DNA of 64,000 nucleotides from positions 79,906 through 143,905 of the forward strand of contig JAGLUP010000002.1 of NCBI GenBank assembly GCA_023134715.1, read 5' to 3'. Shown piece after piece: positions 12,548 to 59,837 of the stretch; the stretch's first letter is position 1; each line of letters opens with the position of its first letter. This DNA comes from Candidatus Parcubacteria bacterium (lineage in GTDB: Bacteria; Patescibacteriota; Minisyncoccia; Minisyncoccales; JAGLUP01). The notes under the pieces are model-generated. The model was not told the origin of the DNA. It saw nothing but the letters and a program-made list of their open reading frames with translations, and ran no database searches. Position numbers and translations under genes: made by a program.

Positions 12548-12566
12548 GTTTTTGTACAAATAGACA

Positions 12567-12594
12567 TTGACAAATTTTTACTTTATGATATAAT
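12567..12594 (+). promoter_or_regulatory. sigma70-type promoter
   Basis: TTGACA (12567-72), 16 nt, TGaTATAAT (-10 at 12589-94); downstream SD AGGAGGTG before ATG 12622. Confidence 0.6.
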
Positions 12595-12621
12595 TAAAAT
12601 TGTTAATAGGAGGTGCTATAA

Positions 12622-12888
12622 ATGGAAAAAGAAGAAGAGGAGGAGGAGAAGGAACAATATTATCTGACGGCAAGAATTATGATAGGTGGAGGGGAGAGTT
12701 GCATGTCTCTACAAGGAGGATTTGATACTCCCGATGAAGTTATAAGTAAGGCAAATCAACTACTTGAAGGTGATCATCTTGGTTGCCCTGAACTTTCTAA
12801 ACCAGTGCAAATTTCTATGATAAAAGGCGTGATAGCTCCACTTGAAATAACAAAAACTGCTTCTATTAAAAAAGAAAATGCCCCTTAA
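12622..12888 (+). CDS. hypothetical protein with acidic N-terminus
   Basis: Strong SD AGGAGGTG 7 nt upstream; 88 aa; no recognisable family. Confidence 0.5.
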   Translation: MEKEEEEEEKEQYYLTARIMIGGGESCMSLQGGFDTPDEVISKANQLLEGDHLGCPELSKPVQISMIKGVIAPLEITKTASIKKENAP

Positions 12889-12939
12889 AATGGAAGTTCC
12901 AAAAGGTCCTTCCTTTTTTATTTTCGTTGCTTAATCGTG

Positions 12940-12987
12940 AATCCGCCTTTTCGTAGAGGCGGATTTTTGGTATAATGAAATAATATG
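12940..12987 (+). promoter_or_regulatory. hairpin-terminator plus extended -10 module, leaderless start
   Basis: AATCCGCC-ttttcgtaga-GGCGGATT, TTTGGTATAAT (-10 at 12971-76), 8 nt, ATG 12985. Confidence 0.6.
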
Positions 12988-13879: not shown

Positions 13880-14103
13880 AAACAATAAAGATATATTGTC
13901 AAAATTGCAGAACGGTTCTATATAAATACCACAAAGATAAACCAGGTCATTTGATTAAATGTTATAAAGATAGAATTTTCAAGGATTATACAGCTGGAGA
14001 TTTAAAATGTCCTCAGTGTAAGCAACAATTTGCCAGAGAAACGATGATTTATAAAAAACCAGCCAATAAAATTATTCAAGGAAAAGTTTTTGTAAAAAAA
14101 TAA
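13876..14103 (+). CDS. zinc-ribbon protein, unknown function
   Basis: CQNC...(37 aa)...CPQC; ATGA overlap with the UDG gene. Confidence 0.5.
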   Translation: MKTIKIYCQNCRTVLYKYHKDKPGHLIKCYKDRIFKDYTAGDLKCPQCKQQFARETMIYKKPANKIIQGKVFVKK

Positions 14104-14137
14104 TTTGCCTGAGAGCTTTTTTTTGGTTTTTGAATGT

Positions 14138-14154
14138 TGTATAATATAATAATG
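14138..14154 (+). promoter_or_regulatory. -10 element placed for a leaderless start
   Basis: TGTATAAT (-10 at 14140-45), 6 nt, ATG 14152. Confidence 0.45.
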
Positions 14155-14397
14155 GAAAAACCAAAAGAAAAATTTAATCAAGAAGATTATTTTGTTAGAC
14201 CTCTTTATTGTGACAAGGTTTTAGAAATTTTGAAGAAAGAATTAGAAAAGATTGAAAAATCGGGAAAAAAGAGTTTGTGGGCTTTCAGCGCCGAGAAGAC
14301 CTTGAAACATTTAGAAAAAGAAAAGGGTCTTAATTTAAGCCCTCACGATGTAGAAAATATTATCTGCGCCTTATTAAAATATATTGATAATCAATAA
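14152..14397 (+). CDS. hypothetical protein
   Basis: ORF track 14134..14397; ATG 14152 preferred because TATAAT lies inside the 5' extension. Confidence 0.45.
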   Translation: MEKPKEKFNQEDYFVRPLYCDKVLEILKKELEKIEKSGKKSLWAFSAEKTLKHLEKEKGLNLSPHDVENIICALLKYIDNQ

Positions 14398-14402
14398 AAA
14401 AA

Positions 14403-14423
14403 TCGCCAAATGGGCGGTTTTTT
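14403..14423 (+). terminator. intrinsic terminator of the AAAATCGCC..GGCGGTTTT family
   Basis: CGCC-aaatg-GGCG followed by T6. Confidence 0.6.
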
Positions 14424-14466
14424 AGCATATCCCTGCAGCTAAGCTACAGGGATTGCTTAGCAAAAT

Positions 14467-14495
14467 TTGACGCGGTTTTGGTTTTATGATATGAT
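14467..14495 (+). promoter_or_regulatory. promoter of the dapB-like gene
   Basis: TTGACG, 17 nt, TATGAT; ~100-nt leader with CTCTTTAC/GTAAAGAG hairpin; SD AGAGGTG. Confidence 0.45.
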
Positions 14496-14595
14496 TTTAG
14501 TATAAATTAGTATAGAAATTGCTCTTTACAATAAATATTGGATTGAATTGGTAAAGAGAAAGAATGAAAATATAAATAAAAAAGAGGTGATTTAA

Positions 14596-22637: not shown

Positions 22638-22682
22638 TTAATAAAAAGCTTGTATAAAGTTAATTTCTATGATAAAATAAGC

Positions 22683-22898
22683 ATGAAGATAAATAGATTT
22701 AAAATTAAAGAACTTATGGCCAAAAAGAAAATTGACAATTTTTCTGAACTTGCTCGCATGCTTGGTATTTCCAAAAACCAGCTTTCAAATATTTTATCAG
22801 AAAAATATAATCCAATAAAAAGCAATGTCATTGAATTGGCTGAGTTTTTTGATGTTAACCCTGTTGATTTATTAGAGGAGGATAAAAAAGATAAATAA
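22683..22898 (+). CDS. XRE-family HTH regulator (controller-like)
   Basis: FSELARMLGISKNQLSNILS..NVIELAEFFDVNPVDLL; ATG 22683 preferred over TTG 22650. Confidence 0.75.
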   Translation: MKINRFKIKELMAKKKIDNFSELARMLGISKNQLSNILSEKYNPIKSNVIELAEFFDVNPVDLLEEDKKDK

Positions 22899-22921
22899 TA
22901 TTCAATTTTTAATTATAATTT

Positions 22922-27977: not shown

Positions 27978-28273
27978 TATTTCTAACTTAGCGTTCTAGA
28001 ACGCCAACCCAACGCCAACTTTTCCAACCAATTTTCTTTCATTTTTTCTCTTTCTTTCTTTTTCCTGTTTCCCCTTTTAACCCCTATTTTACACTATAAA
28101 TACACTTACCACTCCCGAGGGGCGAGGATGCGAACGGAGAGATAACGGAGTGAGCGTCCGAGCCCGAGGATACAATAAGTCAGGGGAAATTTAGTGGATA
28201 GCTATAAATACTAAATTAAATAAAATTAAACCAAGTAAAAAATTGAAGAAAAATTGATTGAGGAATAAAATTT

Positions 28274-33129: not shown

Positions 33130-33186
33130 GGACAACTGTCCTCAAACAATAATTAAGTTGTAAAATTAAAAAGTAAATAACGGAAA

Positions 33187-33381
33187 ATGAAAAAAATATC
33201 TAATTGGATACATGGATTTGACGACAAAGGAAAAGATTTATCGAAATGTGTTAAAGATTTTCTACATTGCCATACTTTATGGTACGGAAATGGAGGACCA
33301 TGCTCAAATTGCACTGGTCGTGAAATATGCTTAAAATTGAAAGAGGAAGGTTCTCTTGACCAACCATTTAATATGGATTAA
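33187..33381 (+). CDS. small Cys-rich hypothetical protein
   Basis: 64 aa with C..(4)..C and CSNC motifs; followed by a terminator. Confidence 0.4.
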   Translation: MKKISNWIHGFDDKGKDLSKCVKDFLHCHTLWYGNGGPCSNCTGREICLKLKEEGSLDQPFNMD

Positions 33382-33392
33382 AAAATGCAAAC

Positions 33393-33420
33393 AGAGCTTT
33401 TGATTAAGCTCTTTTTTTTT
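33393..33420 (+). terminator. intrinsic terminator
   Basis: AGAGCTT-ttgatt-AAGCTCT followed by T9. Confidence 0.75.
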
Positions 33421-33447
33421 GTTTTGGCTAGAAAATTGGATAAAAAA

Positions 33448-33475
33448 GCGGTTTTTTGGTATAATGAAAATAATG
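33448..33475 (+). promoter_or_regulatory. GCGGTTTTTTGGTATAAT module with a leaderless 17-codon sORF
   Basis: -10 at 33460-65, 7 nt, ATG 33473; sORF MKKFSPTKKTKPFKTRH* (33473..33526). Confidence 0.45.
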
Positions 33476-33564
33476 AAAAAATTTTCACCAACAAAGAAGA
33501 CAAAGCCGTTTAAGACCCGACATTAAACAATAAACAATTAATATTTTCTTAGCATATAATTAAA

Positions 33565-43485: not shown

Positions 43486-43572
43486 TTTTTTAAAAAATCT
43501 TAATCTTAATTCCGCGCAGTGGTATTTGGGTCTGTTTTGTAGGTCTAAGGTCGGGTCTTAAACTATCTAAAT

Positions 43573-43694
43573 TTGACAAAATTGCGCTGATACGGTATAT
43601 TTAAAATAACAATGGAGGATAAAAAGTTGAATTTTCAACTTTTAAAAATAAGTTCATTGTAAATAAAATAATGAAATGAAAAAGAGGTGTAAAA
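43573..43694 (+). promoter_or_regulatory. promoter plus conserved structured leader, copy 1
   Basis: TTGACA-17-TATATT; AATAACAATGGAGGAT; hairpin AAAAGTTGA-attt-TCAACTTTT (43622-43); TTCATT/AATGAA (43653-75); SD AGAGGTG. Confidence 0.6.
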
Positions 43695-45282: not shown

Positions 45283-48200
45283 ATGTACGAGCAATTCTCT
45301 AATCTTGATCAACCCGAAAAAATATCGCGCTCTAAAAAATCAAAGATTTTTGCTTTGATTGCAATAGCCGCTTTGATAATTGGCGGTTTTTATTTTTGGA
45401 GTAAAAAACAAGAAACAGCTAAACCATATATCCAGGGCTATCGTCTGGTTAATGAAAAAATTTCGCAATCAGCCGCAATCGCAATTTACCTGCCAGACGG
45501 TCTTGAAAAATCAAACACTGAAAAAAATATTGAATTCTTTCCAGAGATTGAAGGCAATTGGCTAAAATCTGACCAAGGAAGAGAGATTATTTTCAAACCA
45601 AAAGAAAAACTGGAGCTAAACAGGTATTATTCGGTAGAACTAACATTAAGTCAATTAGATGAAATCTCTGCCCAATCCATCCAATTTGTCTCAGCTCAAT
45701 CAGAAGCAGGGGAAAGCATTATTAAAGCTGATTTTCTGGTAGTTGAAAATCCAGAGATAATTGCTATTTTTCCCAAAGAAAATTCAGAAGCGCCGGAAAA
45801 TTCAGAAATTACCATTGTTTTTAACCGACCAATGGTGCCTTTAACTACTCTTGGCTATTTGGAAGAAAAAGATATCCCTGTGGAGATTACTCCGGCAACC
45901 GAAGGAAGATTTAAATGGATTACTACAAGAAATTTACAATTTATTCCCAAAGAACGACTAAAAAGAGCTTCTAATTATAAAGTTAAAATAAAATCAGGAA
46001 TGGTCTCAATGGACAATTTAGAAGTAAGAGGGCAAGAAATTGAATTTTTTACGAGAAAACTAAGATATCTTAATTTGACACAAGGCAGAATCATTTACAA
46101 CCAGCCCATTTCTATTTATTTTAATCAGCCAGTGGATTTAGAAAAAATTAAAAATGAAATATCATTAGAAAATATTACTACCGGAGAAAAAACGCCATTT
46201 ATTATTGAATATGCTGAAGGACAAAACCAAAATGAACTTAAAGAAAAAAAGGACGAAGTATTTGGAAATATAAATATTTCTGATGTAACCGCCGCTGTAT
46301 TTAATAAACTTGGATTTGAGTGGCCTTTTAATAAAGATGAAAAAGAAAAACAAGCCAATGAATCAATAATCCGAATTTATAACAAAAAAGATAAATTTGG
46401 CAGAGAAAAATTTTGGGATTTTGCGAATAGCTACTCTTTAAAAATAAATAAATCCTATCCTATTGAGGGAGATATTATATTGAATGAAATGCGAATTGTT
46501 AATGTTAATGTATCAGATGTTATTGAGAGAATTAGCGCTGAATCAGAAAGAACTAAATATGCCGCTCCTGATTTTTTTGACCCTCAAGGAAAGCTCTGGA
46601 TAAATTTTTATGAAGAAATTGATTTAAATAAAAGTGAAATTAATGTCCAAAAACTAAAGCATATTGGTTACGGAGAAAAATGTAAAGACGAAACGCAAAC
46701 AATTTCCAGTAATATAGAATGTGAAAAAATAGCAGACAAGAAAAAAATCCTTATAACCTTTGAACAGGAAAAAATAGGATTAGGGGAAACATTAGAAATC
46801 AATTTTAAGAAAATAGTTAATCTTTCCAACCTTACTATAAACAGAGAACCAATTATAAAACACATTATTTCTTATCCAAAGTTTAAGCTCTTAAAAACTT
46901 CTCCTGAAAATAATTCAAGCCAGACAAATCTTACTGAATTTATTATTTGCAGCAACTCTCCTATTTCAGCTCCTGCCAGAGAGGATTATAAAAATTATCT
47001 TAAAGCTAATTTAGATTATGAGATAAATTATTGGGGAAATTCCTGGAGGGTCGGTTATATATCTTCGCGTGAAGTATGCGATATAGATGAATTCCACACC
47101 AGCATTAAATATGGATTAATGCCTCTGGCTGATTATTCTTTAGAATTAAAATTAGAAGATGTTTTTGAACAAAAACTTTCACGCTCTTTAAAATTTTCTA
47201 CCGGCGCAATGCCAAGCTTTCATTTGAATTTTTATCATTTACAGAAAAATTATAATGTAACTTCGCCTGAAAAAACCAAGCTTACCTACGCTGCAGAAAA
47301 TATGGATTATGTGAATATAGAAATTTGTAAATTAAGTCCTTTAAATTTTCTCTATTATTTAGATAAAAAACCTAAGTATTATGAATCTGGCAGAAGTATT
47401 TTAAATTGCCAAGAGATTGTCAGAGATAAAATTTATCTGCCGGAAAAATACTGGATTAAAAATTATTTTAAAATAGATATCAATGATTATTTTAAGGAAC
47501 CTCTTGGCCATTATATTCTAACTCTTTCTCATCCTAATTATAGAAGACAATGGGGTGAAAAGCGTCAAGTTTATGAAAGAAGCTATTTAACTATAACTAA
47601 TTTAGCAGTGGCTGAGAAAAAAATTAATTCTCAATACGCAAATTATGGAACAAATGAGACCTTAAACGCAAAACAATTAAACGAACTTCGCAATTTTTAT
47701 TGGGTAACTAATCTTGATAATTTAGAGCCGGTTCCCAACGCTTCAATAAAGCTTTATCAAAAAAACTTAACTCCGGCAGGAACTTATACCACCAATGACA
47801 AGGGAATTGCTCTTACTCAAGTAATTACAGATTTACAAGGGGTGATTATAAGCAAAGGGAAAGACAGTACTGTTATTCCTCGTTATGAAAGCAGATTAGA
47901 TTATGCAAGCAGCGCGTTTTCCGCTAAAAAGATTTATTTATACACTGATAAGCCGATTTATCGCCCGGGTCAGGAAGTTTTTCTTAAGGGCATTTATAGA
48001 ATCGGCTATGATGGGAGCTATGAAATTTATTCAGGAAAGAAAGTTAATTTAAAAGTTTATAACAGCAAAGGCGATGAAATTTTAAATAAGGATTTAGAAA
48101 TTAATGATTTTGGCACATTGAACACCAACCTTATTCTGGACAAAGGAGCTCCTCTGGGAATGTACCGAGCATGTATAGATAAATTTAGCTGTATTTATTT

Positions 48201-51200
48201 TGATATTCAAGAATATGTTCCGGCTCCTTTTGAAATAAAAATTGAAACTGATGAACAAGAATATATTTCTAAAGATACGGTAGATTTAGAAATAGAGGCA
48301 AATTATTATTTTGGAGTGCCGTTGGAAGGAGGAACAGTAAGCTATACTATTAGCAGCCAGGATTATTATTTTGACCGTTTTTCTAACGGCTGGTTTAATT
48401 TTGGTTCCGGATGGTATTATCGCTATCCTCATTATTACGGCGAAAAATTTATTTTAAGAAACGAAACATCTCTTGACGCTAATGGCAAAGCGAAAATTTC
48501 CCAGTTATTTGATTTGCAAAAACTTTTTAAGAATAAAGAAGACAGGAAAAGTAAAATTATTGTAGTTGATATAACAATAAGAAATCCTCAAGGCCAAAGT
48601 GTTTCCGCTCAAAAATCTTTTATTGTGCATAACGGCGAATTTTATTTAGGTCTAAAAGCTGACAAATCATTTGGGCCGAAGAATGAAAAATTTAATCTGA
48701 AAATAAAAACAGTTGATACTCAAGGCAAGGAGACCAAAATAAAAAATATTACCTTGAATCTTTATAAAGTAAAGTGGATTTACAATAAAAGATTGGGCTC
48801 AGACGGCGGCTATCATTATGAATGGGAAAAACAAAAGGACTTAGTTAAGACCTATAATTTTAATACAAATAATCAAGGAAACTTTACTCAGGAATTGAAG
48901 ATAAGCCAAGAGGGAAGTTATGAGGCAGAGGCAGAAGCAGAAGATAAAAGAGGCAATTTAATTTCGAGCTCGTATAATCTTTATATCTATGGCGCAAAAC
49001 AGGTGAGCATTAAACCGACTAAAGATACTAAATTAGAAATTGAAGCTGAAAAAACTGATTTAAAAGTAGGAGAAACAGCAAAAATTATAATTAAATCCCC
49101 TTATGAAAAAGCTAAGGCCCTTATTTCGATTGAAAGAGGTAAAATCTTTGATTATGAAATAAAAAATATAAAAGGCAACCTTTATAGCTATGAATTTAAA
49201 ATTAAAGAAGAGCATCTGCCAAATGTTTATGTTTCGGTTTTACTTCTTTCTTCTGAACCGGAAATTAAATTTGGGAAAATTGAATTTAAAATCAATACCG
49301 AGAGAAAAGAACTTAACATAGAGGTTAAGTCCAATAAAACACAATATTTGCCCGGAGAAAAGGTAGCTTTGGATATATTAGTAAAAGATTATAAAGGCAG
49401 ACCTGTTTCCGCGGAGCTTTCTCTGGCAGTGGTAGATCTTAGCGTTTTAGCTCTTAAAGGTAATCCTAAAAAAAATCCTTTAATATTTTTCTATGGCGGT
49501 TTTCCATTAACCGTTTCTACCGCTTCAAATATTAAAAACATTTTAATAGAATTTCCAATTGCGACTAAAGGCGGAGGAGGAGGGGCAGATGAAGCGCTGG
49601 CTAAGAAAAAACGTGGAATATTTAAAGAAACAGCGTTCTGGCAAGCAGTAGTCAGGACCGATGAAAATGGGAAGGCCTTAGTTGAATTTATTCTGCCTGA
49701 CAATCTTACCACCTGGCAGGCCGAAACAATAGGATTAACCAAAGATACCAAGTTTGGCGTTAATTACCAGGAATTTCTTACTAAAAAAGAATTAATGCTG
49801 GTTCCTTTAAAACCTCGGTTTGTGGTTCCGGGAGACACTTTTTACATAGGAGCAAAAATATTTAATCAAAGCAAAGATAAGCAAAAATTAAACGTTAAAT
49901 TTGACAGCCAAACCTTAATTTTAGAAAACGATAAAATAGAAAAGAAAATTACAATCAATTCAAATAAGACCGATACTGTTTATTTCCAAATAAAAGCGCC
50001 TCCTCAATTTGAAATCGGAGAACACAAATTTATTCTTTCTGTTAAAAACCAAAAGTTAGAAGATACGGTGGAGCAATCAATTAATATCACGAGAAATAAT
50101 ACGTATGAAGTTACGGCTACGGCTAATTATACTCAAAACAATGTCAGCAAAGAATATGTTTTTCTTCCTGACGATATAGTTAAAGATAGAGGCAACCTTT
50201 CTTTAAAAGCCAGCGCTACTTTGGCTGTGTTCCTTTCTGATTCTCTTAACTACTTGTTAAAATATCCTTATGGCTGTTCAGAGCAAATAGCCAGTAAATT
50301 AAACGCGATTGCCATTGTCCAAAAAGGCCTTAACCTGCCGAATATCAGTGATAAATTTAACTTGGAAAAAATCAAATATAGGGATAAAGAATATTCTATA
50401 CCAGAAGTAGTAGAAATTGGGCTGGCTGAACTTTATAACAACCAGCGAAGCGACGGGGGATTCTCTTATTGGAAACACGGAAAATCTGATTTTTATTTAA
50501 CCCTGCATTTAACAGATACGCTTCATAATCTTTCTTTGGCTGGATTTGAAATTAATCAAAACAGCTTAGAAAGAGCGGCTGATTATCTTGACAAAGAAAT
50601 CAGAAAAGGAAAATGGAAATATGAAAATGAATCGCAATATAAAAATAGGATAATTTTAACTTCTTATACTTTATTTAGGTTGCCTAATTTTAAGGATAAC
50701 TACTTTCTAAAACAAAAAATAATTCAAATAGCGCAAAATGATTTATTTATCCAAGAGCAAATAAGCAATAATAGTTTGGCTTATCTTGCAATATTATCAA
50801 CAAAAGATTTTGACGCGAATTTAAAAAATAAAATTTTTACTGTCTTAGATAATAGAATTAATATAGATTCCAGAGGCGCTTTCCTTGAAACCAATAAAAA
50901 TATAATTTGGCGATATTATGAAACTTCAATTAAAAATACAGCGCTGTATTTAAAAGCGCTTGCCGTTGACAAAAGAGATAACCAAATTTTAGATAAAGTT
51001 TTAAGATGGCTTTTAAACAGCAGGGCAAAAGATGGAGCATGGGGCTCAACTAATAACACAATTACTGTTGTTGATTCATTTACTGATTTCTTAGTATGGA
51101 AAAAAGAAACTGAATCAAACTTTGGTTTAGATTTATTTATTAATGAACAAAAACAGGGCGATTTTAATTTCAATCCAGAAACAATCTTAGACCAATTTAG

Positions 51201-51789
51201 AAAAAAGATTTCTTTGTCAGATTTAAAATTTGGTAAAAATAATACTATTGAATTTTTAAAAACTAATCACAATAATCTACCTAATAATCTTTATTATGAC
51301 TTGGCTTTGAAATATTATCTTCCTGCTGACCAAATTCCTCCTCGAGATGAAGGATTTAGCATCAGTAAAGAGTTTTATAAATTAGATGATAAAGAAAACA
51401 AAAACCCGCTGAGAGAAGCCAAAGTAGGAGATGTTCTTAGGGGACATATTCAAATAACAATACCGACATCCAGAAATTTTACGGCTATTGAAGATTATAT
51501 TCCGGCTGGAATGGAAATTGTTAATCTAAGTTTAGCAACTGAAGAAAAATCTTTAAGATTACAAGAAAAAGAATTACAAGGAAGAGAGCTGCGTCCTGAT
51601 TTTAAGGAAATCCGCGATGACAGAGTTTTCCTTTTCAAAGAAACTCTTAAGCCAGGGGTATATGAATTTGATTATTATGTAAGGGCCTTAATAAAGGGCA
51701 AATTTATTCATTTGCCTGCAATAGCTTCAGAAATGTATTTTCCGGAAAACTTTGGCCGAACCGCCGGAACATATTTTGAAATAAAATAG
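45283..51789 (+). CDS. bacterial alpha-2-macroglobulin family protein with thioester motif
   Basis: 2168 aa, N-terminal anchor, repeated Ig-like MG-type regions, YPYGCSEQIASKL (CxEQ thioester). Confidence 0.85.
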   Translation: MYEQFSNLDQPEKISRSKKSKIFALIAIAALIIGGFYFWSKKQETAKPYIQGYRLVNEKISQSAAIAIYLPDGLEKSNTEKNIEFFPEIEGNWLKSDQGREIIFKPKEKLELNRYYSVELTLSQLDEISAQSIQFVSAQSEAGESIIKADFLVVENPEIIAIFPKENSEAPENSEITIVFNRPMVPLTTLGYLEEKDIPVEITPATEGRFKWITTRNLQFIPKERLKRASNYKVKIKSGMVSMDNLEVRGQEIEFFTRKLRYLNLTQGRIIYNQPISIYFNQPVDLEKIKNEISLENITTGEKTPFIIEYAEGQNQNELKEKKDEVFGNINISDVTAAVFNKLGFEWPFNKDEKEKQANESIIRIYNKKDKFGREKFWDFANSYSLKINKSYPIEGDIILNEMRIVNVNVSDVIERISAESERTKYAAPDFFDPQGKLWINFYEEIDLNKSEINVQKLKHIGYGEKCKDETQTISSNIECEKIADKKKILITFEQEKIGLGETLEINFKKIVNLSNLTINREPIIKHIISYPKFKLLKTSPENNSSQTNLTEFIICSNSPISAPAREDYKNYLKANLDYEINYWGNSWRVGYISSREVCDIDEFHTSIKYGLMPLADYSLELKLEDVFEQKLSRSLKFSTGAMPSFHLNFYHLQKNYNVTSPEKTKLTYAAENMDYVNIEICKLSPLNFLYYLDKKPKYYESGRSILNCQEIVRDKIYLPEKYWIKNYFKIDINDYFKEPLGHYILTLSHPNYRRQWGEKRQVYERSYLTITNLAVAEKKINSQYANYGTNETLNAKQLNELRNFYWVTNLDNLEPVPNASIKLYQKNLTPAGTYTTNDKGIALTQVITDLQGVIISKGKDSTVIPRYESRLDYASSAFSAKKIYLYTDKPIYRPGQEVFLKGIYRIGYDGSYEIYSGKKVNLKVYNSKGDEILNKDLEINDFGTLNTNLILDKGAPLGMYRACIDKFSCIYFDIQEYVPAPFEIKIETDEQEYISKDTVDLEIEANYYFGVPLEGGTVSYTISSQDYYFDRFSNGWFNFGSGWYYRYPHYYGEKFILRNETSLDANGKAKISQLFDLQKLFKNKEDRKSKIIVVDITIRNPQGQSVSAQKSFIVHNGEFYLGLKADKSFGPKNEKFNLKIKTVDTQGKETKIKNITLNLYKVKWIYNKRLGSDGGYHYEWEKQKDLVKTYNFNTNNQGNFTQELKISQEGSYEAEAEAEDKRGNLISSSYNLYIYGAKQVSIKPTKDTKLEIEAEKTDLKVGETAKIIIKSPYEKAKALISIERGKIFDYEIKNIKGNLYSYEFKIKEEHLPNVYVSVLLLSSEPEIKFGKIEFKINTERKELNIEVKSNKTQYLPGEKVALDILVKDYKGRPVSAELSLAVVDLSVLALKGNPKKNPLIFFYGGFPLTVSTASNIKNILIEFPIATKGGGGGADEALAKKKRGIFKETAFWQAVVRTDENGKALVEFILPDNLTTWQAETIGLTKDTKFGVNYQEFLTKKELMLVPLKPRFVVPGDTFYIGAKIFNQSKDKQKLNVKFDSQTLILENDKIEKKITINSNKTDTVYFQIKAPPQFEIGEHKFILSVKNQKLEDTVEQSINITRNNTYEVTATANYTQNNVSKEYVFLPDDIVKDRGNLSLKASATLAVFLSDSLNYLLKYPYGCSEQIASKLNAIAIVQKGLNLPNISDKFNLEKIKYRDKEYSIPEVVEIGLAELYNNQRSDGGFSYWKHGKSDFYLTLHLTDTLHNLSLAGFEINQNSLERAADYLDKEIRKGKWKYENESQYKNRIILTSYTLFRLPNFKDNYFLKQKIIQIAQNDLFIQEQISNNSLAYLAILSTKDFDANLKNKIFTVLDNRINIDSRGAFLETNKNIIWRYYETSIKNTALYLKALAVDKRDNQILDKVLRWLLNSRAKDGAWGSTNNTITVVDSFTDFLVWKKETESNFGLDLFINEQKQGDFNFNPETILDQFRKKISLSDLKFGKNNTIEFLKTNHNNLPNNLYYDLALKYYLPADQIPPRDEGFSISKEFYKLDDKENKNPLREAKVGDVLRGHIQITIPTSRNFTAIEDYIPAGMEIVNLSLATEEKSLRLQEKELQGRELRPDFKEIRDDRVFLFKETLKPGVYEFDYYVRALIKGKFIHLPAIASEMYFPENFGRTAGTYFEIK

Positions 51790-51792
51790 CTT

Positions 51793-51813
51793 CCACGGAG
51801 CTTAGCTCCGTGG
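51793..51813 (+). terminator. hairpin after the macroglobulin gene
   Basis: CCACGGAGC-tta-GCTCCGTGG; no T-run. Confidence 0.4.
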
Positions 51814-51823
51814 GTCCAAGCTA

Positions 51824-51926
51824 TTGACAAATTTCGCTTTTATGGTATAATTATAAATATTAGGAGAGAGAAACTGATTTTAATTATTCACGAAAAACAG
51901 ACCTCTCCTTTGGATGTCTGTTTTTC
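51824..51926 (+). ncRNA. promoter plus short terminated transcript (sRNA or attenuator)
   Basis: TTGACA (51824-29), 16 nt, TGgTATAAT (51846-51). AGGAGAG (51862-68) is complementary to CTCTCCT (51903-09), which lies in the loop of the terminator AAAAACAGAC/GTCTGTTTTT (51893-925). Confidence 0.45.
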
Positions 51927-51938
51927 TTTATCTCTCAT

Positions 51939-52124
51939 CAGCTCTTTGAAACAAAAAAATAACCCGTCAAAAGTCCTTCGGGCAATTAGGCGGGCAAAAA
52001 AGAAAGAGAAACCCGCCTTTGTTTAAACTTCGGCGAGGCAAGGCATTCTCCTGCTGATTGAGGTTCTAATTTTTGGACCCCAGCCAGCAGGAGAATGATA
52101 TTTTATCCCTGCGAGGTGAAAAAG
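51939..52124 (+). promoter_or_regulatory. conserved structured leader, cassette A
   Basis: 74 nt identical to 52655-52728. CTCCTGCTG (52048-56) pairs with CAGCAGGAG (52085-93) and GGTTC/GGACC lies inside. SD GAGGTG. Confidence 0.6.
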
Positions 52125-52496
52125 ATGGAATTACGTAATTTAATAGAAAGGGCAACCATTGCAGGATTGATTAAATGGGAACCTACAGAAGAGCAAGAAG
52201 TAAGAGAGAATGGTCGTATAATGCGAGGATATAAGGCAAATGTCGGAAACTTTGAGATTCGAACTATTGTTCGAAAAACTAAAAAGAAATCTTTTTGGGG
52301 TCCCACTTTTGTTTATGGAGTTGCTATAAAAGATAACTCAGGAAGAGAGAAAATTTTGACTAGTGACCCGAAAGAGCTTCCCGGAAAAAAAGAAGAATAT
52401 ATTTGCGTTATTGTATGGGGAGTCCAGCATGAGGTAGAAAATAAAGACTTGCTTACTGCCATTAAACAACAACTAGCCCAAATGACCATGTCTTAA
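52125..52496 (+). CDS. small hypothetical protein (cassette A)
   Basis: ATG 52125 sits 6 nt after the conserved GAGGTG. The track start 52095 lies inside the conserved leader. Confidence 0.5.
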   Translation: MELRNLIERATIAGLIKWEPTEEQEVRENGRIMRGYKANVGNFEIRTIVRKTKKKSFWGPTFVYGVAIKDNSGREKILTSDPKELPGKKEEYICVIVWGVQHEVENKDLLTAIKQQLAQMTMS

Positions 52497-52505
52497 CTTG
52501 ACACA

Positions 52506-52613
52506 CTTTCTCTTTCTTTATTTTTTCGAGCTCAGAATAACAAACTTGATAAGAATTTACCGAGACCCGACCTCGGTAAATTCATAAAAAGTGGGGTTGT
52601 GGGTTGGAAAAAG
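52506..52613 (+). repeat. conserved 3' trailer, cassette A
   Basis: CTTTCTCTTTCTTTATTTTTTCGAG (52506-30); hairpin TTTACCGAG..CTCGGTAAA; GTGGGGTTGTGGGTTGGAAAAAG (52591-613). Confidence 0.65.
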
Positions 52614-52654
52614 CCCTGAACTACATAGAATTCAGGGTAAAGCGAAAATAAAAA

Positions 52655-52866
52655 CAGCTCTTTGAAACAAAAAAATAACCCGTCAAAAGTCCTTCGGGCA
52701 ATTAGGCGGGCAAAAAAGAAAGAGAAACAACCGAGAAGCCATCCCGGTAGACATTTCTGTAGATTGTTCTCCTGCTGATTGAGGTTCTAAATGTAACGAG
52801 AACTGTTCTCGTTACATTGGACCCCAGCCAGCAGGAGGATAATATTATTCCTGCGAGGTGAAAAAG
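52655..52866 (+). promoter_or_regulatory. conserved structured leader, cassette B
   Basis: Same blocks as A. The GGTTC/GGACC helix carries an extra 12-bp perfect hairpin (52791-52817). Confidence 0.6.
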
Positions 52867-53100
52867 ATGGGAGATAAAACGAAAATTACGGGAAAAATGA
52901 CTGAAGAGAGAAAATGGGAAATTGGCTATAAAGCTCTGAAAGAAAAATTTAAGAGTTCTGCGGGCGCTGGACTTATTGGGAAAAATGTTAAAAGAGAAGT
53001 AGGCAATATAAGCCAAGCTATTGAGGTCGACATAGACGAGCTAATGGAGTTTGCGGAAATTATGACCAGAGAGCTTGTCGATGAGACCTATAGCAAATAA
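52867..53100 (+). CDS. small hypothetical protein (cassette B)
   Basis: ATG 52867 sits 6 nt after the conserved GAGGTG; 77 aa; unrelated to the cassette A protein. Confidence 0.5.
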   Translation: MGDKTKITGKMTEERKWEIGYKALKEKFKSSAGAGLIGKNVKREVGNISQAIEVDIDELMEFAEIMTRELVDETYSK

Positions 53101-53230
53101 AAAAACAAAAGAGAAGGCAAGGTTGAAGCGTTGCTTCCTAAAAGGGTAATTGTGCTTCCTTTGTGAAGTATTATCACAAAGCAAAGACAGAACAAGAACC
53201 TCTCCTCCCTTCCTATTATTTTTTTTAAAA

Positions 53231-53289
53231 CTTTTCTCTTTCTTTATTTTTTCGAGTCCATAAACTGTGGGGTTGTGGGTTGGAAAAAG
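53231..53289 (+). repeat. conserved 3' trailer, cassette B
   Basis: CTTTTCTCTTTCTTTATTTTTTCGAG (53231-56) and GTGGGGTTGTGGGTTGGAAAAAG (53267-89). Confidence 0.65.
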
Positions 53290-53307
53290 GTAAAATAAAA
53301 AATAAAT

Positions 53308-55374
53308 TTATTCGTTGACTATGATGGTTATTGTTTGCCGGGAGCTATTAGCGCTCTCGGCTTTTATTTTGTATAATCCGATTTCTTGAGGAATAAAAAT
53401 AGCGGTCTGGCCTTGGTCTAAAAATTTTCCATCAAGAATCCACTTAACTCTTTCTTTAGCTTTTAAAATTATTTTTGTGTTATTTTCCAGCAAGAAAGTA
53501 TCTCCATGATGAGGACTTAAGATTAAATCAAAATCTTGTTCTTTTAAAATGTTTTGTGATTTTTCATAATCATCATTTGGTAGACCATATTCAATATCAA
53601 TGCCATTGTAAAATTCTTCTAAAAGATTAAATTCAAAAGGAGTTTTTTTATTATATTCTGAATTAAGAAGCAACTCCATTGTCTCTGCCCATATCCTGCC
53701 CGCGCCAACTTGGCCAGTAATGCTTTCCATTGGCGTATTATCAGCGTTTCCCACCCATACGCCGACTAAAAAATCAGGGGTGTAACCAATTACCCAACTG
53801 TCGTGAAAATCCCGGGAAGTCCCGGTTTTTAGAGCGTAATTTTTCTGAAATAAATTAAAATCGCTTTTTAATCCGAATTGCTCAATGCCTGTTTTTCTAT
53901 CGTTTAAAATTATATTAATTAACTGAATATATTCCGGCTCGGTTATTTTTTTTGGTAAAGATAAACTATTATTATTTTGAAAAATTTTCAATTCTTTTAA
54001 AATTCCATTGTTAGGGAAGATAGTGAAATATTTGGCTAAATCTAATAAGCTCATTTCTAATGACCCAAGAGCTATTCCCAGTTGATAATTATTTAAATCT
54101 TGAACCGGTTTAATCTCTAATTCTTTTTCTAAAAAATTATAAAAATTTTCTAATTCAATGTATTCCAAAACCTTTACTGCTGGAACGTTTAAACTATTAC
54201 TTAAAGCGTAATGCAGGTTCACTTCGCCGCGATATTTATAATCAAAATTTTTAGGATAAAGAGGAAAGCCGATAGCAGTAATATATTTATATTCTCTGTC
54301 ATCCACTAAAGTATAAGGCCTTAAACCTTTTTCAAACGCTTTGAGATAAATAAAGGGTTTAATGGTTGAACCAATGGGTCTTGGCTTTGTCAACATATTA
54401 ATTTGATTTCCTGATTCAAAAGATTTTGGAGCAGGCGAACCAATTAAAGCCAATAATTCACTCTCCGGAAGTTTAATTATGACAACAGCTCCGCTGTTAG
54501 CGTTTTTTGGTTTTAAATCTTGTATATTTCTTTTGACAATTTCTCTTATTTTCTCAGTTAGCTGTTTATCTATGGTTGCTTGCTGGATTTGAGAATGATT
54601 ATTAATTAAATCTTGAAGCTCAAAATAAGAATCGCTGGAATGAGAATATTTTTGCATATTTTCTTTTATAACAAAAACGTCTTGAAAAATAATACTTTGG
54701 CTGTCTGTATTTAATCTTTGAGTTAAGAATAAAGCAATTTCTTTATTTTTAATTTTGGCTGGATTATTTTGAGTAGGACTGCTGATACTCGCAAGGAGCT
54801 GTAGAATCTGTCCTTGAGTTAGCATGTCCGGCGATAAATTAAAATAAAGCTGGCTTGCCTCTGACAATCCCTGAACCTGATTTCCAAAATAAATAGAATT
54901 AGCATACATTTTTAAAATAGTTTCTTTGCTTTGGAAAATTTCTAAACTTAAGCTATAAAATGCCTCAATAATTTTATTTTTTAAATTTCTGTCTGATTCT
55001 TTTTCTAAAAGAATTTTTACTATTTGCTGGGTAATAGTGCTGGAAGCTCTTTTCCTGCCAAAATTAAAATACCCCAAGCCAGCTTGAAACGCGGCCCAGG
55101 GATTAACGCCAAAATGATAATAGAAATACCTGTCTTCTTTTTCAATTAAAAGTTTTTTAAATTCAGAAGGAACTTCATCTAAATATTCAGCCCAATATCC
55201 TTTTTTGTTTGGTTTAATAAAAATTATTTCTCCTGCTCTGTCTTTGATTATTATAGAATTTTGCTGATTATAAACATCTATTAATTGTTTTTGCGCGACA
55301 TAAGCAAATATCAAAAAACAGGCAAAACCAATGCCTAAAATTATTAAAAATGTTTTGAAATTATATTTCAGCAT
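53308..55374 (-). CDS. pbpC: bifunctional penicillin-binding protein, PBP1C-like
   Basis: GT51 motifs EDRYFYYHFGVN and ASTITQQ; transpeptidase STIKPF, SLN, KTGTS; C-terminal Ig-like tail typical of PbpC. Confidence 0.75.
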   Translation of the reverse strand: MLKYNFKTFLIILGIGFACFLIFAYVAQKQLIDVYNQQNSIIIKDRAGEIIFIKPNKKGYWAEYLDEVPSEFKKLLIEKEDRYFYYHFGVNPWAAFQAGLGYFNFGRKRASSTITQQIVKILLEKESDRNLKNKIIEAFYSLSLEIFQSKETILKMYANSIYFGNQVQGLSEASQLYFNLSPDMLTQGQILQLLASISSPTQNNPAKIKNKEIALFLTQRLNTDSQSIIFQDVFVIKENMQKYSHSSDSYFELQDLINNHSQIQQATIDKQLTEKIREIVKRNIQDLKPKNANSGAVVIIKLPESELLALIGSPAPKSFESGNQINMLTKPRPIGSTIKPFIYLKAFEKGLRPYTLVDDREYKYITAIGFPLYPKNFDYKYRGEVNLHYALSNSLNVPAVKVLEYIELENFYNFLEKELEIKPVQDLNNYQLGIALGSLEMSLLDLAKYFTIFPNNGILKELKIFQNNNSLSLPKKITEPEYIQLINIILNDRKTGIEQFGLKSDFNLFQKNYALKTGTSRDFHDSWVIGYTPDFLVGVWVGNADNTPMESITGQVGAGRIWAETMELLLNSEYNKKTPFEFNLLEEFYNGIDIEYGLPNDDYEKSQNILKEQDFDLILSPHHGDTFLLENNTKIILKAKERVKWILDGKFLDQGQTAIFIPQEIGLYKIKAESANSSRQTITIIVNE

Positions 55375-58515: not shown

Positions 58516-58537
58516 TTATTACTAACTTATTTTAATC

Positions 58538-58573
58538 CGTAACAAATCTCGCCGATCGGCGAGATTTGTTATG
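58538..58573 (+). terminator. long palindromic hairpin, copy 1
   Basis: AACAAATCTCGCCGATCGGCGAGATTTGTT is perfect (58541-70), followed by TTTTG. Confidence 0.65.
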
Positions 58574-58611
58574 TTTTGTGCGTTTAATAGTCGAGTTTTG
58601 AATTATTTAAT

Positions 58612-58742
58612 TTGACAAACAGCATATTATTTGTTATTGTTAGAATAACAATAAACGATGAGTGATAGAAAAAGTTAAATTTAACTTTTCTTAAACGAGT
58701 TCATTGTAAATAAAATAATGAAATGAAAAAGGAGGTAATAAA
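58612..58742 (+). promoter_or_regulatory. promoter plus conserved structured leader, copy 2
   Basis: TTGACA, TGtTAGAAT (58638-46); hairpin AAAAGTTAA/TTAACTTTT (58670-89); TTCATT/AATGAA (58700-22); SD GGAGGT. Confidence 0.6.
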
Positions 58743-59657: not shown

Positions 59658-59672
59658 TATGCTAATTTAAAT

Positions 59673-59710
59673 CCGTAACAAATCAGGTCGATCGACCTGA
59701 TTTGTTACGG
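59673..59710 (+). terminator. long palindromic hairpin, copy 2
   Basis: CCGTAACAAATCAGGTCGATCGACCTGATTTGTTACGG, 38 nt, perfect. Confidence 0.65.
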
Positions 59711-59730
59711 TTTGATTAAAGAGTTTTTAT

Positions 59731-59837
59731 TTGACAAAATTGTGTTAATGTAATATATTTAAAATAACAATGGAGGATGAAAAAGCTGAAATTCAGTTTT
59801 TTTAAGTGAGTTCATTGAAAAAAGGGTGATTAAAAAA
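59731..59837 (+). promoter_or_regulatory. promoter plus conserved structured leader, copy 3
   Basis: TTGACA-17-TATATT; AATAACAATGGAGGAT; hairpin AAAAGCTGA/TCAGTTTT (59781-801); TTCATT (59811-16). Confidence 0.6.

Follow-up and report, generated by a model that had tools for sequence, protein, structure and literature searches.

The stretch of DNA analysed here (the window, 64 kb) belongs to a metagenome-assembled genome of a Candidatus Parcubacteria bacterium, whose closest PbpC relatives include Nealsonbacteria. Between the gene for a bacterial alpha-2-macroglobulin (A2M; 45283-51789, + strand, product of 2168 aa) and the gene for a PbpC-type penicillin-binding protein (pbpC; 53308-55374, - strand), the window carries an array of two tandem units, A and B, in which shared 5′ leaders and 3′ trailers enclose small open reading frames (ORFs). 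An earlier reading made from the letters alone, referred to below as the sequence-only reading, had placed the array between these two genes, and this placement was correct. The same flanks were found around other small ORFs on three contigs from other samples, so that the units, termed cassettes here, now number seven complete copies plus one extra trailer, from four metagenomic sources including the window.

Anatomy and setting of the window array

The elements of the array were charted by direct reading of positions 51600-53700 together with a repeat finder. From 5′ to 3′, they are as follows.

51824..51851, + strand: sigma-70 consensus promoter TTGACA-16-TGGTATAAT heading the array (12/12 matches, extended -10, (TG)GTATAAT)
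51860..51938, + strand: nested hairpin without an ORF, right after the promoter and before unit A (-22.9 kcal/mol, z = -3.2)
51939..52012, + strand: leader block of unit A, identical to that of unit B
52044..52097, + strand: leader hairpin of unit A, ~21 bp with two 1x1 mismatches (-32.2 kcal/mol, z = -7.3 against shuffles)
52113..52127, + strand: ribosome-binding site (RBS) GAGGTG, 6-nt spacer and ATG of ORF A, common to A and B (repeat and sequence reading)
52125..52496, + strand: ORF A, 123 aa, rare uncharacterised family
52506..52533, + strand: trailer of unit A, pyrimidine tract plus UUUUUUCGAGCUC, complementary in order to leader AGAAAGAGAAA, AAAAAAUAA and AGCUC
52522..52612, + strand: trailer hairpin of unit A, U5C-G-AGCUCA ... 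UGGGUU-G-GA5 with a long variable interior (sense -35.6 kcal/mol, z = -6.3; antisense -20.7)
52614..52654, + strand: spacer between A and B, small hairpin CCCTGAAC..GTTCAGGG and then AAAGCGAAAATAAAAA, an A-rich tail that reappears after unit B
52655..52728, + strand: leader block of unit B, same as that of unit A
52763..52843, + strand: leader hairpin of unit B, stem as in A, loop extended (-47.5 kcal/mol, z = -11.5 against shuffles)
52855..52869, + strand: RBS GAGGTG, spacer and ATG of ORF B (repeat and sequence reading)
52867..53100, + strand: ORF B, 77 aa, orphan
53232..53259, + strand: trailer of unit B, pyrimidine tract plus UUUUUUCGAGUCC (repeat finder, co-fold)
53248..53301, + strand: trailer hairpin of unit B, U5C-G-AGUCCA..UGGGUU-G-GA5G, then tail GTAAAATAAAAA (sense -13.4 kcal/mol, antisense -4.6)
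53337..53361, + strand: terminator-like hairpin with a U-run, within the 3′ coding end of the convergent pbpC (hairpin scan)

The leader block is 100% identical in the two units (51939-52012 and 52655-52728; 74/74 nt in the repeat finder). In unit A it consists of the start motif CAGCTCTTTGAAAC with an A-run (51939-51962), a hairpin insert CCCGTC..GGCGGG (51963-51994; CCCGUC..GGCGGG as RNA) and a purine tract (51996-52011), and its 3′ end reads AAAAAAGAAAGAGAAAC. The segments that follow are unrelated (52013-52043 in A, 52729-52762 in B), after which both units share the hairpin block CTCCTGCTGATTGAGGTTC ... GGACCCCAGCCAGCAGGAG and the block CCTGCGAGGTGAAAAAGATGG. The leader hairpin of unit B differs from that of unit A by a perfect 14-bp palindrome in its loop (AATGTAACGAGAAC T GTTCTCGTTACATT, 52790-52818), which lengthens the stem and does not disturb it. 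ORF A and ORF B are unrelated (BLASTP E = 1.6). On the 3′ side, the trailer block GTGGGGTTGTGGGTTGGAAAAAG is identical in A and B, the trailer block TTTCTCTTTCTTTATTTTTTCGAG is likewise common to both, and in each unit the pyrimidine tract of the trailer is 94% complementary over 16 nt to the purine tract of the leader. The 3′ similarity extends beyond unit B as AAAGGTAAAATAAAAA. The layout described by the sequence-only reading was thereby confirmed in all six of its points; the promoter with the nested hairpin ahead of unit A, the continued 3′ similarity and the trailer hairpin are additions to it. No further copies of the shared blocks were found in the window, for which shuffled sequences predict 0 matches.

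The nested hairpin between the promoter and unit A is composed of a purine tract AGGAGAGAGAAAC, an inner 11-bp stem, a U-rich run and finally a pyrimidine tract; it could represent an attenuator or the remnant of a cargo-less cassette. Between A and B the sole promoter-like site scores 9/12, and the hairpins lack a downstream U-run. The hairpin at 53337-53361 is likely the end of the array transcript, and transcripts of the array probably read ~50 nt antisense into pbpC. Two ideas were considered and rejected: a G-quadruplex in the G-rich block is not conserved in the other cassettes, and a terminator/antiterminator switch involving the hairpin of the 74-nt block would have its CCCGCC partner in unit A only. 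As a separate observation limited to two cases, AACTACA occupies the loop of a small GC-clamped hairpin directly after the GAAAAAG end of a cassette in the window (52614-52637, CCCTGAACTACATAGAATTCAGGG) and in contig L016 (21190-21212, GGGAAAACTACAACACTACCC).

The junction between A2M and pbpC was compared in seven PbpC homologues (69-74% identity) on nine contigs. The two genes are convergent in all relatives examined, and they are adjacent or at most 133 nt apart in most loci (L015, L016, L018, L143-L147); one unrelated gene fills the gap in L019 and two unrelated genes fill it in L142. In the window, 1518 nt separate the two stop codons. As the relatives lack the array, this interval represents an insertion at a variable junction. 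In one relative (L143, 10001-12018) pbpC is split into pieces of 593 aa and 52 aa, owing either to a frameshift or pseudogene or to an assembly error.

Recurrence of the flanks around different cargo

Besides A and B in the window, complete cassettes were counted at L016 20556-21190 (+), at L016 6266-5775 (-), on L148 and on L150 (three trailers, two full cassettes). The first L016 cassette was found by sensitive BLAST of the insert against related loci, with weak similarity, and the second lies on the opposite strand of that contig. Only protein homology to ORF A led to L148 and L150; because these contigs were fetched by the identity of the ORF A protein alone, their flanks constitute an independent confirmation. 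L148 holds one cassette, which has a terminator and a TTGACA..TGGTATAAT promoter; the promoter at its head (TTGACA..TATGGTATAAT) resembles that of the window array. On L150 (L151 is identical), three cassettes with unrelated cargo abut in an array without promoters, in which ...GGCTCAAAAAAGG is followed directly by AAATAGCTCTTTGAAAT... at the junction.

Seven parts are arranged in the same order throughout. Every cassette begins with the start motif yAGCUCUUUGAAA and A-rich sequence (part 1), followed by a purine tract (part 2). A strong hairpin then precedes the RBS in six of the seven cassettes, L148 being the only one without it (part 3); its sequence is unrelated between cassettes, and its 3′ arm holds the RBS in L016-1, L150-1 and L150-2. 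The RBS with ATG and then the ORF (parts 4 and 5) are present in every cassette. At 0 to ~130 nt past the ORF lies a pyrimidine tract with complementarity to its own cassette's purine tract (part 6), and then the trailer hairpin, TTTTTTC-G-AGCYC (or AGTCC), a variable hairpin interior and G-GAAAAAG(G) (part 7). Similarity between units stops exactly after GAAAAAG. Within a genome the flanks are near-identical (in A and B they are identical as far as the ATG), whereas elsewhere the cassettes of family A keep only the motifs, around cargo homologues of 40-45% amino-acid identity. The CAGCTC of the start motif lies 7 nt past the -10 box in both L016 cassettes, 20 nt past it in L148 and 87 nt past it in unit A, and is internal in L150; this variable distance and internal position rule out CAGCTC as an obligatory transcription start.

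Apart from the listed cassettes, no more copies were found in ~250 kb of related loci. Rfam scans of the window and the related loci at gathering and permissive thresholds returned only chance-level microRNA and small nucleolar RNA matches far below threshold, and thus no Rfam family explains the flanks. Pattern scans were likewise negative: a hairpin DNA pattern had 0 matches in genome contigs and viral contigs, AATAAAAACAGCTCTTT had 120 matches in genome contigs, all by chance as the pattern is too unspecific, CAGCTCTTTRRAAYAAWAAAAAT had one chance match in metagenome contigs, inside a glycosyltransferase ORF, and four more scans of viral sequences gave only chance matches, in regions that are coding or G/T-rich. 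Phage and plasmid collections yielded no BLAST match to the DNA or to either ORF, and a search of viral contigs for the ORF A family gave no relatives. The flanks do occur outside this genome (L016, L148, L150) and around differing cargo, which disagrees with a plain duplication with homologous ORFs.

The cargo falls into five types. Family A occurs three times; the others are ORF B, a secreted protein of 156 aa, one of 83 aa, and one of 110 aa that weakly resembles STIV B116-like proteins and a PHROG. Homologues of ORFs A and B were sought by a word-indexed search of 5.8 billion proteins, in which each ORF retrieved only itself, and by a full HMMER scan, which yielded 35 remote full-length homologues of ORF A (30-45% identity, 109-158 aa). 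The alignment of this family shows conserved W18 and TSDP..PG.K; its clusters hold one or two sequences each, mostly on 1-2.6-kb contigs. Judged from these sequences, ORF A represents a real, rare and uncharacterised family. No homologue of ORF B was found, and it remains an orphan; its single-sequence AlphaFold2 model is a predicted three-helix bundle (mean pLDDT 72) that produced only generic three-helix matches in a fold search (E > 2), and the predicted model of ORF A (mean pLDDT 59) was too uncertain for such a search. Neither ORF generated a match in Pfam, PHROGs or PADLOC, nor did a PDB profile search for the function of the cargo. Codon-usage scores were 0.353 for ORF A and 0.413 for ORF B, against 0.359 +/- 0.094 for the long genes of the genome and negative values for the off-frames. 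Because their codon usage is native to the genome, both ORFs were regarded as real genes. The 156-aa cargo (L016 20656-21126) has an N-terminal signal peptide and a C-terminal anchor; its C-terminal tail (..PGFETFITMISFVIVIIAMRRKK) appears similar to a PGF-CTERM-type sorting signal, which would be unusual in a bacterium.

Three further arrangements were noted on other contigs. In L149 (480-1872), a different repeated flank is found around each of two proteins, a homologue of ORF A (41% identity) and a membrane protein of 71 aa (phrog_705, E = 5.8e-10); its module, present three times, consists of a terminator-like hairpin, CACCCTTATCACCTCCTC, and a hairpin CCCGAGGTCGC..GCGAC.TTTCGGG fused to a TTGACA..TATAAT promoter; the CACCCTTATCACCTCCTC box matches the anti-Shine-Dalgarno end of 16S rRNA. 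In L015 (300-440, - strand), a purine tract directly after CAGCTCTAAGC.. and a complementary pyrimidine tract enclose no ORF (AAAAAGGGCAAAAAGAA AAA TTCTTTTTCCCTTCTTTTT); a terminator comes next, and the whole may be a cassette lacking cargo or a mere hairpin. Also in L015 (5598-5668, - strand), a diaminopimelate-decarboxylase-like housekeeping gene has a TTGACA promoter and then GGTTCTTTAAGAAATGAAAAAGG, which is similar to the start motif of the cassettes, and the motif may in part reflect a general consensus near promoters in these bacteria.

Predicted long-range pairing and hairpins of the RNA

The energies of cognate leader-trailer duplexes ranged from -17 to -25 kcal/mol; compared with shuffled trailers of matched composition, z was -2.1 to -6.0. 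When the 74-nt block of the window was co-folded with the trailers, the binding ddG was -17.9 for A and -15.0 for B, compared with -5.1 +/- 2.1 for shuffles, none of which was as good (0/200). The co-fold keeps the block's own hairpin, flanked by a purine-pyrimidine helix of 13 bp on one side and an AGCUC:GAGCU helix on the other; by direct reading, the trailer of unit A presents CUUUCUCUUUCU, UUAUUUUUU, C and GAGCU in succession, complementary in order to the three leader segments listed above. In folds of whole cassettes (490-675 nt), five of seven contained the purine-pyrimidine helix spanning the ORF in their minimum-energy structure; four of these have 10-14 expected pairs, and L150-1 has 5.0. 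Cassette-specific covariation of the long helix is suggestive; the energies of cognate versus non-cognate duplexes were tried as proof of it and rejected as not discriminating.

The trailer hairpin is present in all eight trailers. At its base, in an alignment made by hand, 90.6% of cells are paired and 6 of 12 pairs change on both sides, values reached by 0/500 shuffles, and slid registers gave 32-65%. Summed over the trailers, hairpin energies were -154.8 kcal/mol for the sense and -113.9 kcal/mol for the antisense strand (sense better in 6/8); for the leader hairpins the sums were -189.7 and -152.7 kcal/mol, respectively (sense better in 6/6). This sense-strand bias is due to G.U pairs, and RNA, or at least the top strand, is therefore favoured over double-stranded DNA as the form in which the structures act.

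Other features of this genome were recorded in passing. Three intergenic leaders with a long common sequence (43486-43694, 58516-58742 and 59658-59825; TTTGACAAA..promoter, AACAATGGAGGATAAAAAGTTGAATTTTCAACTTTT hairpin, GTTCATTGTAAATAAAATAATGAAATGAAAAAGAGGTG) precede two HbpS-like genes and a small ORF, and may be a second repeated leader or regulatory RNA of the genome. After a 766-aa gene, the interval 27978-28170 contains a C/T-rich tract (..CTTTTCCAACC..TTTCTCTTTCTTTCTTTTTCC..) like the pyrimidine tract of the trailers, and then a GC-rich, apparently structured stretch (CCCGAGGGGCGAGGATGCGAACGGAGAG..CCGAGCCCGAGG). The gaps 12548-12984, 13880-14595, 22638-22921 and 33130-33564 hold short ORFs below the 90-aa listing with good RBSs, e.g., TAGGAGGTGCTATAAATGGAAAAAGAAG.. 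at ~12610, and many small genes of this genome have their own consensus promoters.

A proposed portable mRNA frame and its alternatives

The sequence-only reading had proposed two explanations, a shared cis-regulatory RNA with pairing between the untranslated regions (UTRs) on the 5′ and 3′ sides and a mobile or recombining unit of the cassette type. The former is supported, as the complementarity is found in all seven cassettes from the four sources, with sequences particular to each cassette, appears in full-length minimum-energy folds and comes with the sense bias. The evidence on the latter is circumstantial: the insertion relative to the relatives and the promoter-less abutting array speak for it, and neither a recombinase, a target-site duplication, an attC-like core nor an excised form was seen.

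The reading we favour, with about even confidence, is that each unit is a portable 5′/3′-UTR frame of mRNA that acts in the sense transcript and closes, insulates and tunes its cistron. A conserved 5′ UTR (start motif, A-rich/purine tract, hairpin and strong RBS) and a conserved 3′ UTR would enclose whichever small ORF is present. After transcription the two UTRs would pair in vivo across 400-550 nt, closing the cistron as a panhandle beside the stable 3′ hairpin. By analogy with hbs, icaR and other mRNAs (PMC12697547), such closure would define, insulate and stabilise each cistron, whether it has its own promoter or lies in a promoter-less array. The duplex would be long enough for an RNase III-type processing site, the paired ends would resist 5′- and 3′-end-dependent RNases, and the hairpin near the RBS would set the level of translation. 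There are precedents for such pairing: a 14-bp 5′/3′-UTR pairing modulates RNase Y cleavage of the Bacillus subtilis hbs mRNA (PMC5737220), the pairing of the icaR 3′ UTR with its 5′ UTR creates an RNase III substrate (PMC3868564), and pyrimidine-rich tracts pair in vivo with purine-rich RBS sequences hundreds of nucleotides away (PMC12697547). The conserved frames would also offer homology for the swapping of cargo ORFs or for homogenisation of frames within a genome, and we propose that the identical flanks around unrelated genes arise because of such exchange or homogenisation. The identity of the A and B flanks, as opposed to the motif-only kinship elsewhere, fits concerted evolution or exchange through the flanks.

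Several points weigh against this reading. In unit B the long helix lies outside the minimum-energy fold, with 1.75 of 16 expected pairs, and in unit A it is partial (7.1/16). Non-cognate purine and pyrimidine tracts pair almost as well as cognate ones (in L148 and L150-2 alone does the cognate partner rank first), and the long-range duplex itself differs little between sense and antisense. The trailer hairpin alignment was built around the structure, so that its pair counts lean towards structure, and the sample comprises eight trailers from four sources. The strong conservation of the start motif AGCUCUUUGAAA goes beyond what pairing alone explains. Finally, judged by sequence, closure might either stabilise or repress.

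Among known systems, icaR (PMC3868564) and hbs (PMC5737220) are the closest, as in both a pyrimidine-rich 3′ UTR pairs with a purine-rich 5′ UTR several hundred nucleotides away in the same mRNA. By their complementarity, duplex energies, folds and co-folds the cassettes appear to be of this type, with duplexes of 11-19 bp (14 bp in hbs) and a comparable expected link to RNase III, Y or J. However, icaR and hbs are one-gene cases, whereas the cassettes reuse a conserved frame, with at least five unrelated types of cargo found in four metagenomic sources, and, unlike icaR and hbs, have a conserved start motif, a conserved 3′ hairpin and tandem occurrence. The PeSL modules of T4-type phages (a terminator stem-loop plus an early promoter, ~50-70 bp) are also short conserved regulatory modules around small, mostly unknown ORFs in variable regions, and recombination between them leads to insertion, deletion and replacement of cargo (PMC2839356, PMC4122927). 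The present modules similarly bracket differing ORFs, as relatives lack the array and the same flanks hold different cargo. They differ from PeSLs in that the frame takes up 180-370 nt per junction and includes long-range complementarity, its hairpin lacks a following U-run, and its arrays can be promoter-less. The junctions of the window and L150 do not combine promoter and terminator; it is the three-copy flanks of L149 that fit this composite, as a PeSL-like variant. PeSLs reside in hyperplastic regions of T4-type phage genomes, whereas the array is located in a bacterial chromosome and has no match in the phage and viral collections. There is also a likeness to rRNA operons. In these, stems that are substrates of RNase III flank the 16S and 23S rRNA, defining the unit and releasing it from a longer transcript. 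In both cases complementary sequences pair over a long distance around an enclosed unit. Unlike in rRNA operons, the enclosed unit here is a small protein-coding ORF, and cleavage of the cassettes is hypothetical.

A serious rival, though one we consider unlikely, keeps the same RNA frame with the opposite sign: as in icaR, the pyrimidine tract of the 3′ UTR would be an anti-Shine-Dalgarno-like silencer that masks a purine-rich ribosome-loading sequence and triggers decay, keeping possibly harmful accessory genes low. Distant anti-Shine-Dalgarno-like tracts do repress and destabilise B. subtilis mRNAs (PMC12697547), icaR provides a precedent (PMC3868564), the tract of L148 is predicted to pair with the RBS itself (GAGGUGAAAAAAGA with UCUUUUU..CAUCCUC), and in other cassettes the purine tract resembles a Shine-Dalgarno sequence (AAGGAAGG, GGAAGAGG, GGGAGAGAG). 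However, L148 is the only cassette with this icaR-type pairing; in the other six the partner is a separate upstream purine tract and not the functional RBS, the RBS is free (window) or held in its own local hairpin, and the window tract AAAAAAGAAAGAGAAA lacks a GG core. Somewhat less probable still is a cassette system at the DNA level, in which the U5C-x-stem..stem-x-GA5G hairpin would be a folded single-strand recombination site, like attC, and a dedicated recombinase would move the cassettes. Much of the arrangement recalls integrons: promoter-less cassettes with unrelated cargo abut each other (three in L150, and two behind one promoter in the window), an imperfect palindrome follows each ORF, whose outer stem is conserved and whose inner stem, past a central mismatch, is less so, with a variable loop of 4 to ~60 nt, similarity ends at one exact point after GAAAAAG, and the flanks are homogeneous within and diverged between genomes, as in chromosomal integrons. 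The insertion of the window array between convergent genes agrees with this, as do the short contigs on which family-A genes mostly occur (1-2.6 kb), which are expected if repeats break assemblies. Nevertheless, the attC core sites R″ (RYYYAAC) and R′ (GTTRRRY) are absent, the arms in 8/8 trailers being TTTTTTC ... GAAAAAG (top strand) and CTTTTTC ... GAAAAAA (bottom strand), without an AAC/GTT core. As for IntI, attI and Pc, no recombinase domain was found among the called genes within +/-10 kb, an absence that is not decisive since integrase-less arrays exist. The conserved part, moreover, includes a long 5′ leader with an RBS fused to the start codon, for which integron cassettes have no counterpart, the leader hairpins and the helix spanning the ORF depend on sense-strand G.U pairs, and no circular or empty-site forms were seen. 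To the same low degree we entertain a previously unknown gene-cassette platform of the candidate phyla radiation (CPR). Its cassettes would be moved or reshuffled via the U5C..GA5G hairpin and the junction yAGCTCTTTGAAA, either as DNA or by way of an RNA intermediate, and each would bring an expression frame of its own that excises, closes or even circularises the cistron out of whatever host transcript holds it. If true, it would be a functional analogue of integrons with built-in RNA insulation.

Transposition and simple copying are both very improbable. The cassettes could be viewed as non-autonomous transposons similar to miniature inverted-repeat transposable elements that captured small ORFs, with CAGCTCTTTGAAAC..A-run and T-run..CGAGCTC as terminal inverted repeats; these are 71-72% complementary, AGCTC faces GAGCT, and the array is intergenic and inserted compared with relatives. 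Yet the right repeat is subterminal, the conserved hairpin and GGAAAAAG running 60-90 nt beyond it, and reads AGTCC instead of GAGCT in 3/7 cassettes, no target-site duplication is seen at 51938/51939 or 53301/53302, and neither other copies in the 64 kb nor transposase relatives nearby were found. A relation to the palindrome-associated elements of the IS200/IS605 type does not hold either, as the 5′ and 3′ hairpins are unrelated and the hairpin of the 5′ block is absent from other cassettes; no TnpA or TnpB relatives were detected among the genes near the array. A plain tandem duplication, after which gene conversion acted on the flanks and one ORF was replaced, would leave the flanks without special function; it finds some ground in the 100% identity of A and B over 74 nt, a sign of recent copying or conversion. 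However, the motifs persist in other genomes both across cargo homologues of such low identity and around unrelated cargo, and the stems keep compensatory changes. These observations point to purifying selection on the structure, and they support the view of the sequence-only reading that simple duplication does not explain the locus.

Taken together, UTR-UTR pairing and regulatory cassettes around variable ORFs are known kinds of element, and literature searches found no description of their combination as a conserved, reusable frame in CPR bacteria. The frame may be an RNA device alone or a mobility device too. If the reusable UTR pair is real, bacteria would have evolved a portable expression scaffold, with a logic like that of the insulators of synthetic biology. 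The frame would also bear on how CPR genomes acquire and express orphan accessory genes, and on why such loci fragment metagenome assemblies.

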